Assembly: GCA_051061385.1 (NCBI GenBank)
Contig: JBPFDX010000094.1
Location: 7,252 to 71,251, forward strand
Reading direction: 5' to 3'
Length of the DNA: 64,000 nt
Origin: Methylocystis sp.
Lineage (GTDB): Bacteria; Pseudomonadota; Alphaproteobacteria; Rhizobiales; Beijerinckiaceae
In this document: in pieces, positions 46,701 through 52,906 of the stretch
How the letters are laid out: the number at the start of each line of letters is the position of its first letter
Numbering within the stretch: position 1 is the first letter of the stretch
Made by a program: the position numbers and the translations under genes
The notes under the pieces: generated by a model
The model's input: only the letters and a program-made list of their open reading frames with translations
Told to the model about the DNA's origin: nothing
Database searches by the model: none

Positions 46701-46701
<1 letters not shown>
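46553..46701. repeat. REP/RIME-like palindromic element
   Basis: Perfect 25-bp inverted repeats (46565-46589 and 46664-46688), each itself a hairpin, between convergent genes. Confidence 0.85.
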
Positions 46702-47999
<1,298 letters not shown>

Positions 48000-48083: not shown

Positions 48084-48485
48084 CTACGCGTGCGGCGTCA
48101 TCCAGGCGACCATGGCGCCGCCCGGCTCCTGCAGCACCGCCATGCGGCCGACGCCGGGGATGTCGAAGGCGTCCTTGCAGATCGTCGCGCCGGCGGCCTT
48201 GGCCTTCTTTAACCGCGCGTCGACGTCATCGACGCCGATGTAGGTCAGCCAGTGTTCCGCAACGCCCTCGAACTCCGGGCCTTTCATCTCGAACAGGCCG
48301 CCGACCCGCGCGCCTTCGGAGCTGATGAGCCAGTACGTGAAGCCTTGCATCGGCATGCCCTCGAAACTCCAGCCGAGGGATTGGCTGTAAAAGTTTTTCG
48401 CCCGCTCGACGTCGCGGACATTGAGCTCGTTCCAGCAAACCGCGCCATGCTTCGGCGGGGCGCCACAATCATCGGCGTTGGACAT
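48084..48485 (-). CDS. VOC/glyoxalase family protein
   Basis: CWNELNVRDVERAKNFY, WLTYIGVDDVD, DIPGVGRMAVLQEPGGA. Confidence 0.88.
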   Translation of the reverse strand: MSNADDCGAPPKHGAVCWNELNVRDVERAKNFYSQSLGWSFEGMPMQGFTYWLISSEGARVGGLFEMKGPEFEGVAEHWLTYIGVDDVDARLKKAKAAGATICKDAFDIPGVGRMAVLQEPGGAMVAWMTPHA

Positions 48486-48529
48486 CGCCTCCTCCTCTCA
48501 GCTCAACAGTATTTGGTTGAATCAACGTT

Positions 48530-49396
48530 TTACGACGCAGGCGGCTGTTTCGGCAGCAGTCGGAGCCGGCGCGCGGTCAGCCAGTCGATGAGCCGCGCCG
48601 GCAACAGGCTGCGCAGCGTGTAATCGGTGAGGCGATTCCTGACGACGGGAATGCGGACGGGCGGCCGCGGCGCGGTCACCGCCTGCAGCGCCGCCCTTGC
48701 GACCACCTCGGGCCCGGGCGCTTGGCGGCCCTCTTCGACAAGCCAATTCAGCATTCTCCGGCCCGGATCGGCATAAACCGTGCCTGCGAACATGCCGAGA
48801 TCGGTCTCCTCGGCCTTGTCCCAGATCGGCGTTGCGATCATTCCCGGCTCGATCAGGACGACGTCGACGCCATAGACCATCAGCTCGCGGCGCAGCGCGT
48901 CCGACATGCCCTCCAACCCGAATTTCGAGGCGTTGTAGGCGCCAAGGAAGGGCGCCGCGAAACGGCCCGCGACCGAACTCATGTTGACGATGCGGCCGGG
49001 CGGGCCTCGCCGCTCTTCGCCCGCGCCGAGCAGTGGCGCAAAGGCCTGAACGACCCGAAGCTGGCCGATAAGATTGATCTCGAGCTGGCGCCGGAAGTCG
49101 TCGATCGGCAGATGCAGCAGCGGGCCTGGGACGGCGACGCCGGCGTTGTTGACGAGGCCCGCGAGCGTTTGGCCGTCGAGACGCGCCTCGACCTCCCGCG
49201 CCGCGGCCAGGATGGCCTCGCCGTCGGTCACGTCGAAGAGGAGCGGCGCGACGGCGGCGCCGTAGCGCGCGACAAGCTCGGCGGCGTCGGACTCCTTGCG
49301 GACCGACGGGAAAACCAGAAAGCCCTTTTCCACCAAAAGGTCGACGCAGGCCGCGCCAATGCCGGTCGAAGCGCCGGTGACGACGACGGCCCTCAT
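48530..49396 (-). CDS. SDR-family oxidoreductase
   Basis: TGASTGIG, NNAG, YNASK. Confidence 0.92.
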   Translation of the reverse strand: MRAVVVTGASTGIGAACVDLLVEKGFLVFPSVRKESDAAELVARYGAAVAPLLFDVTDGEAILAAAREVEARLDGQTLAGLVNNAGVAVPGPLLHLPIDDFRRQLEINLIGQLRVVQAFAPLLGAGEERRGPPGRIVNMSSVAGRFAAPFLGAYNASKFGLEGMSDALRRELMVYGVDVVLIEPGMIATPIWDKAEETDLGMFAGTVYADPGRRMLNWLVEEGRQAPGPEVVARAALQAVTAPRPPVRIPVVRNRLTDYTLRSLLPARLIDWLTARRLRLLPKQPPAS

Positions 49397-50763
49397 ACGC
49401 GTTCTCCCAGCGCCGCGACAAGCTGGGCGAGCGCCACGCGCGTCTCGCCGTCGGCGCGGCCGTCGACCTTCGCGCGTCGGAAGTGGCGCTGAAACGCCTC
49501 GACCGCCAGGACCGTCTGCGCGTCATAGACGCCGGTCGCATCGACGCGATAGCCGTAGGCGGCGAGATCGCGCTGGAGGGAGGCGACCTTGGCGCCTTCG
49601 TCGCCGAGGGAGACCGTCGTCGCGCCGATGCCCGGGTTTTCCTCCGCGACCCGCCCGACGCCCCGCTGGGCGAGCTCGTCCCAGGGGAAGAATTCGCCGG
49701 GATCGCGCTTGCGGCCGGGCGCGATGTCGGAATGGGCCAGCACGCGTTCCGGCGGTATGGCGCGGCGCCGGGAGATGTCCCTGGCGAGCGCCGCCGTCGC
49801 CTCGATCTGCGCCGCCGGATAGGGCCGCGGGTCGTCGTGGCCAGGGTGAACGATTTCGACGCCGATCGAGGCGGAGTTCATGTCGGTTTCGCCCGCCCAG
49901 AAGCTCTTCCCGGCGTGCCATGCGCGGCGCGACTCCGGCACGAGCTGCAGCACGCGTCCGTCCTCCTCGACGAAATAATGCGCCGAAACCTCAGAGCGCG
50001 GATTGCAGAGCAGGGCGAGCGCCGATTCCGATGTTGGCATGCCCGTGTAATGCAGCACGAGAGACGAGATCGGCCGCAGGCGTTCGCCGTGATTGGGCGA
50101 GGGGCAGACCCTCGCCCCGGCGTAGTCCGGCTCGAAGAAACCCTGGCCGTTGCGCCAGGGCTGCGTCGCGGAAAGCCATTCCCGCGTGCGCGCCTCGGGC
50201 TCCGAGCTGCGCAAAATGTCGGTGACGACGCAGGCGCTGTCGGCGCCGGCGGCGAGCGCGGCGATCGCGCGCTCGGGCGTCAGCCCGCCGATCGCGACAA
50301 GCGGCGTCTCGCCGATCCGCGCCTTCCAGTCGCCGATCCGGGCGAGCCCCTGCGGCGCAAAAGCCATCTGTTTCAGCAGCGTCGGATAGATCGGCCCGAG
50401 CGCGACATAGTCGGCCGCAAGAGAGAGCGCCCGGTCGAATTCGGCCTGGTCGTGCGTCGAAACGCCGATCCTGACGCCGGCGCGGCGCAGCGCTGGAACA
50501 TCGGCCGAATCGAGATCGCCCTGACCGAGATGCACGAAGTCGCAGCCTTCTTCGATCGCGAGCCGCCAGTAGTCGTTGACGACGAGTTGCGCGCCATATC
50601 GCGCGCAGATATCCCGCGCGCTCGCGATCTGCGCGCGCACGTCAGTTTCGGCGCGATCCTTCACCCGCAGCTGCACGAGTTTGACGCCCTGCGGCAGCAG
50701 GCGGGACAGCCAGTCAGCGTCGTCGACGATGAGATAGAAGGGATCGAGCTTCAGCGCCGCCAT
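49393..50763 (-). CDS. thiE: Thiamine-phosphate synthase fused to Zn N-acetylmuramoyl-L-alanine amidase (Amidase_2) and PG-binding domain
   Basis: ThiE motifs QLRVK, VNDY, HLGQ, PTLLK, AIGG; then SPNHGER, LHYT, SAHY, AWHAG, GVEI, HSDIAPGRKRDPG, AFQRHFR. Confidence 0.9.
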   Translation of the reverse strand: MAALKLDPFYLIVDDADWLSRLLPQGVKLVQLRVKDRAETDVRAQIASARDICARYGAQLVVNDYWRLAIEEGCDFVHLGQGDLDSADVPALRRAGVRIGVSTHDQAEFDRALSLAADYVALGPIYPTLLKQMAFAPQGLARIGDWKARIGETPLVAIGGLTPERAIAALAAGADSACVVTDILRSSEPEARTREWLSATQPWRNGQGFFEPDYAGARVCPSPNHGERLRPISSLVLHYTGMPTSESALALLCNPRSEVSAHYFVEEDGRVLQLVPESRRAWHAGKSFWAGETDMNSASIGVEIVHPGHDDPRPYPAAQIEATAALARDISRRRAIPPERVLAHSDIAPGRKRDPGEFFPWDELAQRGVGRVAEENPGIGATTVSLGDEGAKVASLQRDLAAYGYRVDATGVYDAQTVLAVEAFQRHFRRAKVDGRADGETRVALAQLVAALGERV

Positions 50764-50767
50764 CGGC

Positions 50768-51556
50768 TCAGGCCAGCCTGTCGAAGGGCCGGCCGATCAC
50801 CGGCGTCGATGGCTCCGCCATGTCGCGCGGCGTCATCGGCTGGGCTCTGTACCCCGCGCGGCCCGCTTCGATCGCGAGGGCGAAGGCGCGCGCCATCAGC
50901 ACCGGGTCGCCGGCGCGCGAGACGGCGGTGTTGAGCAGCACAGCGTCGTAGCCCATCTCCATCACCAGCGCGGCGTGGGACGGCGCGCCGAGCCCGGCGT
51001 CGACGATGAGCGGCGTGTCGGGAAAATGCGCGCGCAGCGCTCTCAAGGCGAAGGCGTCGTTGACGCCGCGACCGGAGCCGATCGGCGCGGCCCAAGGCAT
51101 CAGCACGCGGCAGCCGGCGTCGAGCAGCTTCTCCGCCACCACGAGATCGTCCGTCGTATAGGGAAAGACTTTGAAACCGTCGTCCGCCAGCGCGCGGGCC
51201 GCTTCGACGAGCCCGAAAACGTCGGGCTGCAGCGTGTCCTCCTCGCCGATCACCTCGAGCTTGATCCAGTCGGTCGCGAAAACTTCGCGCGCCATCTGGG
51301 CGGTGGCGATCGCTTCCTTCGCCGTGCGGCAGCCGGCCGTGTTCGGCAGCACGCGCACGCCGATGTCGCGGATCAGGCTCCAGAAGCTCTCGCCCCCGCG
51401 CGCGCCGCCGGCTTCGCGGCGCAGCGATACGGTGACGATCTCGCAGCCTGACGCGCGAATCGCCTCGGCGAGAATGGCCGGCGACGGATAGCGCGCGGTG
51501 CCGAGCAGCAGCCGCGACGACAGCGCGACGTCGTAAAGCGTCACCCGATCATTCAT
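50768..51556 (-). CDS. thiG: Thiazole synthase
   Basis: [41 protein letters not shown]. Confidence 0.96.
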
Positions 51557-51568
51557 TCGCCAACTCGC

Positions 51569-51766
51569 TCACCCGCCCTGCCGCGGCGTCACGATCTCGA
51601 CCGCGTCGCCCTCGCGCAGCGGCGTCTCGGCGCGATCCTTGGCGCGCACGAACTCCTGGTTCAGAGCGGTGCCGACCGTCTTTTCGTCATATCCCAGTTC
51701 GAGCAGCAGCGTTTGCAACGTCGTCGCGCGGACATCCTGCGGGCGGCCGTTGATTTGAATCATCAT
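51569..51766 (-). CDS. thiS: Thiamine sulfur-carrier protein
   Basis: 65 aa ubiquitin-like fold ending PRQGG. Confidence 0.93.
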   Translation of the reverse strand: MMIQINGRPQDVRATTLQTLLLELGYDEKTVGTALNQEFVRAKDRAETPLREGDAVEIVTPRQGG

Positions 51767-52745
51767 CCATCACCTCTGGGAAATATGCGTCGCTCACGAC
51801 GACCTCCGCCGCGCGGCGCGCCAGCGCCGGCGCAAGCAGGAACCCGTGGCGGTAGAAGCCATTGATATAGAGTGTGCGACCGCGCTTCAAAAGGCGCGGC
51901 AGATTGTCCGCGAAGGCGGGTCGCAGGTCCGAGCCCATCTCGACGATCTCGGCTTCCGCGAAAGCCGGGTGGATCGCGAAGGCCGAATTGACGAGTTCGA
52001 CGACCGAGCGCGCTGTGACCCGCGCGCGCTCCTCATTCTCGATCATCGTCGCGCCGATCATGAACAGCCCGTCGCCGCGAGGCACGACATAAACCGGTCG
52101 TCGCGGATGCAGCATGCGCACCGGGCGCGCCAGGGAAATCTCCTCGCTGCGCAGGATCAGCATTTCGCCCTTCACGCCGCGCAAGCCGGGAAGCGCGTCG
52201 CGCGCCGCGAAGCCGCGGCAGTCGATGGTCCAGTCGGGGATCGTCGCCAGCGCCGCGGCGTCCTGCTGAAAATGCAGCGTCACATTCGGCGCCTTCGCGA
52301 GACGCTGCGTCAGCGCGGCAAGCGCCGCGCGTGGATCGAGATGCGCTTCTTGCGGGAAAAAAAGCGCCGCGTCGAAGCGCCCCGCCAGATCCGGCTCAAG
52401 CGCCGCGATTGCGTTGCCATCCAGCGCCTCGAAATGGCGCGTGCGCCGCGCGAAGTCGGCGAGTTCGGCGCGCTCGCGGGCGGGCGCGACGACGAGGCTG
52501 CCGGCGACCGTGGCGACGCTGAGCTCGCGCGACCAGAAGTCGAGCGCCTCTTCGCCGAGAGTCGCGACCAGCGGCTCGGCGCTTTCCAGTTCGCACCAGG
52601 GCGCGATCATGCCGCCGGCGAAGCGCGAGCAGCCGAGGCCGGCGGCCGGCTCGCGTTCGACGATCTCGACGTCGACGCCCTTTCGCGCGAGGGCGTCGGC
52701 CGCGCAAAGGCCGGCGACGCCGGCGCCGATTACGCGCGCCAGCAC
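51687..52745 (-). CDS. thiO: Glycine oxidase
   Basis: GAGVAG, AGGMIAP, RGVKGE, GATM, RPAFADNLP, NGFYRHG. Confidence 0.92.
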   Translation of the reverse strand: MLARVIGAGVAGLCAADALARKGVDVEIVEREPAAGLGCSRFAGGMIAPWCELESAEPLVATLGEEALDFWSRELSVATVAGSLVVAPARERAELADFARRTRHFEALDGNAIAALEPDLAGRFDAALFFPQEAHLDPRAALAALTQRLAKAPNVTLHFQQDAAALATIPDWTIDCRGFAARDALPGLRGVKGEMLILRSEEISLARPVRMLHPRRPVYVVPRGDGLFMIGATMIENEERARVTARSVVELVNSAFAIHPAFAEAEIVEMGSDLRPAFADNLPRLLKRGRTLYINGFYRHGFLLAPALARRAAEVVVSDAYFPEVMDDDSNQRPPAGCPRDDVANAAARTGI

Positions 52746-52775
52746 GAACGGCGCCTTTCTGCGATATGCGCTGAC

Positions 52776-52906
52776 ACCATCCCTCCGCCAGTCTCAACTG
52801 GATCAGGTTCGAAGGGTCGCCGCGCCCGCGCCTCGCGGCGCTTTCTGCGGCCTCTCAGCCCCTTGGCGGCGCATAGCGGCGCGCCTCCGGCAGGGCTCCC
52901 CCGGCC
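52776..52906 (-). promoter_or_regulatory. TPP riboswitch
   Basis: GGGGAGCCC...GGCTGAGA...GACCCTTCGAACCTGATCCAGTTGAGACTGGCGGAGGGA upstream of thiO. Confidence 0.95.

Follow-up and report, generated by a model that had tools for sequence, protein, structure and literature searches.

A fused thiE–peptidoglycan amidase gene in the thiamine operon of Methylocystis, most likely a tolerated product of genome rearrangement

Introduction

The thiamine phosphate synthase ThiE is known as one module of several fused enzymes, for instance of yeast THI6, in which it is joined to ThiM (PDB 3nl2), of the ThiD-ThiE proteins (NF007070) and of the Nudix-ThiE proteins (NF006530). In THI6 and in the ThiD-ThiE proteins, the partners of ThiE are enzymes of the thiamine pathway. 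Here, we describe a fusion in which the partner is neither ThiM nor ThiD nor a Nudix protein but a peptidoglycan amidase made up of an Amidase_2 and a PG_binding_1 domain, an enzyme of cell wall recycling that shares neither a substrate nor a pathway with ThiE. The fused gene is located behind a thiamine pyrophosphate (TPP) riboswitch in a stretch of 64,000 nucleotides from Methylocystis sp. (GenBank assembly GCA_051061385.1, contig JBPFDX010000094.1, positions 7,252 to 71,251 of the forward strand), which is referred to as the window. A preliminary description of the locus did not recognise this pairing of domains as described, and no description of a fusion between ThiE and a peptidoglycan amidase was found in the literature searched. 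The architecture is undescribed, yet the proteins are present in the databases, where they are named either 'thiamine phosphate synthase' or 'N-acetylmuramoyl-L-alanine amidase'. The fusion is most likely a tolerated product of genome rearrangement and not a new mechanism.

Several counterparts of the amidase half have been described. In Caulobacter crescentus, the AmpD homologue AmiR consists of an Amidase_2 and a PG_binding_1 domain and is a cytoplasmic, zinc-dependent enzyme (eLife 2026, PMC13046382). AmiR, which was assayed on anhydromuropeptides released by Slt, cuts the peptide stems off these compounds and is a bottleneck of recycling (PMC13046382). The Agrobacterium tumefaciens AmpD Atu2113 is also a cytoplasmic amidase of peptidoglycan recycling (PMC9790009). 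AmiR has the same two-domain architecture as the window amidase, a likeness drawn from its architecture and description, and Atu2113 has a related recycling role, a likeness drawn from its description. In contrast to both enzymes, the window amidase has no start codon of its own and forms the C-terminal 247 residues of a ThiE polypeptide that is encoded in a riboswitch-led thiamine operon. The best matches among solved structures are Escherichia coli AmiD (PDB 2bh7, 3d2y) and Pseudomonas aeruginosa AmpDh2 (PDB 4bj4), with E values of 1e-43 and 1e-37 and 36-38% identity, and these matches cover both the Amidase_2 and the C-terminal peptidoglycan-binding domain of the window protein. AmiD and AmpDh2 are exported lipoproteins of the outer membrane or the periplasm that act on the sacculus as well, whereas the Methylocystis module appears, by inspection, to be cytoplasmic. 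Canonical AmpD, as known from Citrobacter freundii (PDB 1j3g), shares the Amidase_2 fold and the presumed pathway role with the window protein, but it is a single-domain enzyme and lacks the additional PG_binding_1 domain. The ThiE half matches Bacillus subtilis ThiE over the full length of the latter, with conserved ligand residues for pyrophosphate, Mg and thiazole phosphate; the window protein differs from B. subtilis ThiE by a C-terminal extension of 250 residues, which constitutes an unrelated enzyme.

Anatomy of the fusion

The fused gene is a single open reading frame (ORF) of 456 codons (49393-50763) in which a complete ThiE is continued in frame by the amidase. This reading, already put forward in the preliminary description, is confirmed by the open ORF, by the Pfam domains and by the full-length match to the ThiE equivalog of NCBIfam. 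At the junction the protein reads ...EWLSATQPWRN-GQGF-FEPDYAGARVCPSPNHG, that is, ThiE is complete and the amidase is short of only its first two residues. The unfused ThiE proteins of sister species end with ...EW(L/V)xATAPWR(G/N)-stop, and GQGF stands in the place of the thiE stop codon and the Met-Thr of the amidase. A second fused subclade has three more residues in its linker (WRD-xPELTRx-FAPDY). The tryptic peptide that spans the linker of the window protein is NGQGFFEPDYAGAR. The absence of a stop codon and of a Met codon at the junction, which had been claimed before, is borne out: there is no stop, and the first in-frame ATG, GTG or TTG past the junction is a GTG at V236, two residues before the putative zinc ligand H238. 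Since there is no start between the junction and V236, the amidase would be made only within the ThiE polypeptide in the window organism. Synthesis of a separate amidase from an internal start was ruled out because a usable start codon is missing.

To check for an artefact, Logan contigs from four independent environmental samples were aligned to positions 49300-50900, and no insertion or deletion was reported for any of them. Two contigs, from X3 (2563 nucleotides) and X4 (7299 nucleotides), each span this region in one piece, and shorter contigs from X1 and X2 cross the junction. Moreover, the fusion ORF is open in the genomes of 18 Methylocystis species, several of which are complete chromosomes, at about 63-90% identity; stop codons that the genome search had flagged as lying inside the ORF are the terminal stops. 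Methylocystis sp. SC2 and M. parvus, both of which can be cultured, are among the fused strains. The conservation of the junction in relatives and in independent contigs, on which the preliminary description had made its claim depend, was thus found. By these sequence comparisons, the fusion is real, old, conserved and confined to one branch of Methylocystis.

Two database entries cover only the amidase half. The RefSeq protein WP_424363885.1 (P0114, 257 amino acids) comes from a Methylocystis parvus contig of 4,148,822 bases and is called from a GTG within the tail of ThiE, although on that contig the ORF is open over all of its 453 codons (P0272). A natural split of the gene in M. parvus was therefore rejected, and the short call is an annotation difference. 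The second entry, a call of 298 amino acids on a metagenome contig of 4343 bases from the Joint Genome Institute (JGI; P0103), shares 97% identity with the window protein where the two overlap and keeps the ThiE tail (EPEARAREWLSATQSWRDGQG), which is preceded by an unrelated Lys/Ala-rich sequence. This contig is probably frameshifted or chimeric, and it is the sole such case among about 120 listed matches.

The ThiE half contains the TMP-TENI domain (PF02581) at amino acids 15-183 with 160.1 bits (Pfam cut-off 27). The ThiE equivalog NF000734 is reached with 322.1 bits (cut-off 252), and positions 2-201 of its 201 positions align to amino acids 5-204. TIGR00693 is matched as well (152.3 bits, cut-off 145.1), and the score for the TenI model NF005819 is far below its cut-off (59 vs 251). 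The alignment with B. subtilis ThiE (PDB 2tps) runs to the last residue but one of the latter (chain position 226 of 227), which is paired with residue 206 of the query. Among 18 fused and 11 unfused sequences, there is no variation at Q31, R33, K35, N63, D64, D83, S102, T128, K131 and G160; we take these residues to be the ligands Q57, R59, K61, N92, D93, D112, S130, T156, K159 and G188 of B. subtilis ThiE (numbering from the 2TPS literature). The position of T158 in B. subtilis ThiE is occupied by Leu in all sequences, fused and unfused alike. There is no second ThiE gene in the genome of the window (G000) or in two other genomes with the fusion (G011, G022), and a ThiC gene is present elsewhere in G000. 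The ThiE half, a TIM barrel, is predicted to couple hydroxymethylpyrimidine pyrophosphate (HMP-PP) and thiazole phosphate to thiamine phosphate.

In the amidase half, Amidase_2 (PF01510) is matched at amino acids 230-357 with 134.4 bits (Pfam cut-off 26) and PG_binding_1 (PF01471) at amino acids 390-445 with 51.6 bits (cut-off 23). The residues H238, E303, H344, K352 and D354 are invariant in 84 sequences and in the 18 fused genes, and they align with conserved positions of AmiD and AmpDh2. Presumably, H238, H344 and D354 form the zinc-binding His/His/Asp triad and E303 and K352 are catalytic. Thus, the invariance of these residues and of those of ThiE across the fused genes agrees with the earlier statement that both catalytic sets are intact. 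The canonical AmpD equivalog NF008758 was not reached (108.3 bits vs 143, with a partial match at amino acids 258-367). On its sequence, the amidase belongs with the AmiR/AmiD/AmpDh2 type and not with canonical AmpD. G000, G011 and G022 have no Amidase_2 gene other than the fused one.

The stand-alone orthologues of the amidase comprise 250-280 amino acids and start with M-(T/S)-F-A-P-D-Y-P-A-A-R-V-x-P-S-P-N-H-G, and by inspection they have no signal peptide, hydrophobic leader or lipobox. The N-terminus of the fusion is the first strand of ThiE, and inspection likewise revealed no signal peptide, in line with what had been noted before. The amidase module of Methylocystis is, judged by inspection, cytoplasmic like its stand-alone orthologues. 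Furthermore, the anhydro-N-acetylmuramic acid kinase AnmK is encoded in G000, and an AmpG-type permease (TIGR00901) was not detected in this genome. The latter result fits the reported lack of AmpG in Rhizobiales, in which muropeptides are imported via YejBEF-YepA (PMC9790009). The amidase half is predicted to strip the peptide stems from imported (anhydro)muropeptides in cell wall recycling.

Both halves look functional and appear to be under purifying selection. In pairwise comparisons within the fused clade, the ratio of non-synonymous to synonymous substitution rates (dN/dS) is 0.11-0.19 for ThiE, 0.06-0.13 for Amidase_2 and 0.04-0.28 for PG_binding_1, and it is 0.14-0.72 for the linker and the interdomain segments. 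An AlphaFold2 model built on the 84 sequences has a mean predicted local distance difference test (pLDDT) score of 86 and a predicted template modelling (pTM) score of 0.81, and the mean pLDDT is 82 for residues 201-210 and 93 for residues 211-220. Confidence falls below 50 in two loops of the amidase, amino acids 289-293 and 345-355, the latter of which holds K352 and D354; we assume that this may reflect the mobile active-site loops of the open and closed forms of AmpD. In a fold search, ThiE and AmiD/AmpDh2 came up as separate matches, and none of the PDB chains extends over both halves (maximal TM-score of 0.41 over the query).

Gene context and the TPP riboswitch

The fused gene is the fourth gene of the string thiO-thiS-thiG-fusion-SDR, in which SDR denotes a short-chain dehydrogenase/reductase gene, and the string is preceded by the TPP riboswitch. 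Both the gene order and the element had been proposed in the preliminary description, and both were recovered. The features, in the order of transcription, are as follows.

52763-52873, minus strand: TPP riboswitch aptamer (RF00059 match), a variant without the first optional hairpin
51687-52745, minus strand: thiO, glycine oxidase of the D-amino acid oxidase (DAO) family (PF01266, 162.6 bits)
51569-51766, minus strand: thiS, sulfur carrier (PF02597, 50.3 bits), listed start uncertain
50768-51556, minus strand: thiG, thiazole synthase (PF05690, 339.7 bits)
49393-50763, minus strand: ThiE-amidase fusion, a single open ORF of 456 codons
50149-50763, minus strand: ThiE module of the fusion, amino acids 1-205, complete to the natural C-terminus ...ATQPWRN
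50137-50148, minus strand: junction with the linker GQGF, amino acids 206-209
49396-50136, minus strand: amidase module of the fusion, amino acids 210-456, with Amidase_2 at 230-357 and PG_binding_1 at 390-445
48530-49396, minus strand: SDR oxidoreductase, the ancestral downstream partner of the amidase
48084-48485, minus strand: gene of the vicinal oxygen chelate (VOC)/glyoxalase family in the variable slot between SDR and ispG, outside the ancestral block
46701-47999, minus strand: ispG (gcpE; NF001540, 452 bits), ancestral neighbour of amidase-SDR

The genes around the fusion are tightly packed: the thiG stop codon lies 4 nucleotides upstream of the ATG of the fusion, and the TGA of the fusion overlaps the ATG of the SDR gene as ATGA. 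Scans for promoters and terminators yielded nothing above chance.

The window riboswitch aligns with model positions 1-105 of the 105 positions of RF00059, with 48.7 bits and an E value of 2.2e-8. It was missed by the default search because its score is below the Rfam gathering score (48.7 vs 54.3 bits). Elements at the same position before thiO in relatives score 61.2, 60.5, 59.5 and 59.2 bits, all of them above the gathering score, and the window element is therefore a divergent orthologue. Its core motifs are intact (CUGAGA, ACCCUU..GAACCUGAUC..GGUU.A.ACC..GCG.AGGGA). The 3' end of the aptamer lies 18 nucleotides upstream of the GTG start codon of thiO, and a Shine-Dalgarno-like GAAAGG is located in between. 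The riboswitch probably acts on the translation of thiO here, and that it reaches as far as the fourth gene is something that we only infer.

Some further observations concern the neighbourhood. As listed, the thiS ORF shares 80 nucleotides (51687-51766) with the 3' end of thiO. Since the ThiS calls are shorter in strain SC2 (47-54 amino acids), the start of thiS in the window probably lies further downstream. No specific family could be assigned to the SDR by profile search. What lies between the SDR gene and ispG varies: the window has the VOC/glyoxalase-family gene there (48084-48485), Methylocystis sp. SC2 has a gene for a TacA1-type antitoxin on the opposite strand (L043, 8268-8507), and the unfused genome G173 has about 3.9 kb of other DNA (L041, 7040-10958). 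In the unfused Methylocystis genome G020, a small RNA of the mmgR/suhB family (RF00519, 69.5 bits vs a gathering score of 41) is encoded about 2 kb upstream of the thi riboswitch (L013, 1021-1096, plus strand).

Origin and distribution of the fusion

In unfused genomes, the amidase gene is part of the locus trpD-trpC-moaC-moeA-amidase-SDR-ispG-UDG-cstA-metH. Throughout the unfused sister clade and the outgroups, thiE is found about 70-490 kb from the amidase gene or on another contig. The window is collinear with the unfused amidase locus downstream of the fusion and with the unfused thi operons upstream of it. The block amidase-SDR-ispG is present in unfused Methylocystis and in the nearest genus (L021, L024, L041, L045) and absent in seven more distant genera (L046-L052). 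The amidase and SDR calls overlap by 17 nucleotides in L024 and are overlapping or closely spaced in L021, L041 and L045. The ancestral neighbour of amidase-SDR, ispG, identifies the DNA downstream of the rearrangement as the former amidase locus. Separate ancestral loci and collinear flanks imply a rearrangement by which the thi operon became linked, at its 3' end, to the 5' end of the amidase block. Accordingly, the 'deletion-born' fusion considered in the preliminary description has to be given up: a deletion between adjacent genes was rejected because thiE and the amidase gene are not neighbours in any unfused genome, and their different loci in the sister clade and the outgroups point to a rearrangement. 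A reciprocal inversion with a second breakpoint at moeA was also rejected, as the genes that follow thiE in the unfused genome G173 do not occur in the vicinity of moeA in G000, G018 or G011, all of which carry the fusion. In fused genomes, moeA lies megabases away from the fusion. About 1.2 kb separate moaC and moeA in the fused genomes G018 and G000 (L037, 1906-3102; L038, 1837-3036), and the two genes are adjacent in unfused genomes.

A maximum likelihood tree was computed from ThiG and ThiE of 17 fused and 7 unfused Methylocystis rows with the nearest genus outside; it is a gene tree and not a species tree. All 17 fused rows group together in a single clade (support 96/97), which is sister to the clade of the 7 unfused Methylocystis rows (100/98), and the nearest genus is outside both. 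Because the fused rows are monophyletic and one change suffices, a single origin fits. The same fusion was found neither in 52 other genera of the family nor in 400 evenly sampled alphaproteobacterial genomes, nor among the best 150 matches of a search of 1.84 billion representative proteins. The best 150 representative matches include no full-length fused protein, and weakly similar independent fusions could escape such a search; the longer multi-stretch matches that were scanned among them have other architectures, such as duplicated amidases and PRC-amidase.

Interpretation and alternative explanations

We consider it likely that the gene encodes a bifunctional cytoplasmic ThiE-amidase with independent activities, which originated once by rearrangement, is tolerated and has tied the amidase to the expression of the thi operon. 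In a single event, at the root of one of the two main lineages of Methylocystis, a chromosomal rearrangement would have brought riboswitch-thiO-thiS-thiG-thiE, with its 3' end, up to the 5' end of amidase-SDR-ispG. The joining would have removed the thiE stop codon together with the start codon of the amidase and left a linker of 4-7 residues. In one soluble protein, the ThiE and amidase halves would then work independently, each at its usual job. The amidase would have left the operon of the molybdopterin genes, and its translation would now begin at the thiE ATG of a transcript that is led by the TPP riboswitch, so that its dosage would be tied 1:1 to ThiE and to some degree to the thiamine status of the cell. 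From the arrangement of the genes, the amidase is predicted to depend on the expression of the thi operon. The fusion may have been retained because each half is the sole copy of a needed function and because fission would require a new start codon and a new ribosome-binding site. We infer the independence of the activities and the neutrality of the fusion.

Several points weigh against this interpretation. No reciprocal junction is found beside moeA in the fused genomes examined (G000, G018, G011). The pTM of 0.81 and the confidently modelled junction might reflect halves that are fixed relative to each other and therefore co-adapted to some extent. As to expression, one contig spans thiG-fusion-SDR in a run labelled metatranscriptomic, in which a carry-over of DNA is possible, and true RNA runs yield only fragments of the locus. 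The case for an uncleaved product of about 49 kDa and for both activities is made from the sequence. Finally, the long retention of the fusion fits a benefit as well as it fits neutrality.

Such a benefit is the essence of the strongest alternative, namely that the coupling is adaptive and that the fusion, or its location behind the TPP riboswitch, was selected, be it by linking recycling to the thiamine or central-carbon status, by mutual regulation of the domains or by a fixed 1:1 expression at a low level. The fusion has been kept, with no reversal, through a divergence deep enough for synonymous sites to be at or near saturation. Moreover, the linker is short and modelled with confidence, and the new cluster brings ThiG, which uses 1-deoxy-D-xylulose 5-phosphate (DXP), together with ispG of the DXP-derived methylerythritol phosphate (MEP) pathway, although this link is speculative. 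However, the fusion has a single origin, and a convergent one turned up neither in some 550 further alphaproteobacterial genomes nor among the best 150 matches of the search of the protein universe. Separate genes serve the sister clade and all outgroups well, the earlier partners of the amidase, moaC and moeA, were equally unrelated to it, and the length of the linker differs between the subclades. Moreover, no biochemical link between ThiE and a muropeptide amidase is known, and no paper on such a link was found in the literature searched. We therefore regard an adaptive coupling as unlikely. A slightly smaller probability still is given to the specific proposal that the fusion is a selected device that would make peptidoglycan recycling answer to thiamine, via the riboswitch and co-translation or via allosteric cross-talk between the domains. 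If it were true, thiamine supply would shift muropeptide turnover and beta-lactam tolerance in the fused lineage and not in its unfused sister. The selected link between cofactor status and cell wall turnover that the preliminary description had offered as its second option is unsupported in view of the single origin, the lack of convergence and the equally unrelated moaC-moeA operon of the past.

The fusion polypeptide might also be cleaved at the linker into a separate ThiE and a separate amidase. An indirect point in favour is that, within the gene, constraint is weakest in the interdomain segment (dN/dS of 0.14-0.43). Yet the linker comprises only 4-7 residues, has no cleavage motif that is conserved across the subclades and is modelled as ordered, and the operon contains no gene for a dedicated protease, which makes cleavage distinctly improbable.

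An even poorer candidate is a fusion in which one half is catalytically dead and serves merely as a scaffold or a regulatory domain. The replacement of Thr158 of B. subtilis ThiE by Leu and the low AlphaFold2 confidence in the amidase loops 289-293 and 345-355 could be cited in its favour. However, the exchange of Thr for Leu is common to all unfused relatives, the other ligand and catalytic residues are invariant, and dN/dS is low in both halves. Furthermore, the three fused genomes have no other ThiE or Amidase_2 gene, though ThiC, ThiG, ThiO and AnmK are present. A dead half is thus very improbable.

The idea that the fusion is an assembly or sequencing artefact of a metagenome-derived genome, due to a lost stop codon or a frameshift, could draw on the draft state of G000 (108 contigs) and on the amidase-only calls WP_424363885.1 (RefSeq) and P0103 (JGI), but with a probability close to nil it is refuted by the ORFs that are open in complete genomes of many species, by the independent contigs without any insertion or deletion and by the 453 open codons of P0272 on the very contig behind the short RefSeq call.

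Implications

Both enzymes are well understood, and no new chemistry is to be expected from their fusion. The locus offers a clean and datable case in which two unrelated single-copy enzymes have come to share one polypeptide, with an unfused sister clade as a control, and it lends itself to the question of whether fusions of this kind are adaptive or act as neutral ratchets. It is also a warning for the 'Rosetta-stone' inference of function and for annotation. Because the Prokaryotic Genome Annotation Pipeline (PGAP) names the whole fusion 'thiamine phosphate synthase', the genomes of the clade appear to lack a recycling amidase. The placement of a cell wall recycling enzyme behind a TPP riboswitch predicts that the level of the amidase, the accumulation of muropeptides and the sensitivity to beta-lactams would depend on thiamine.

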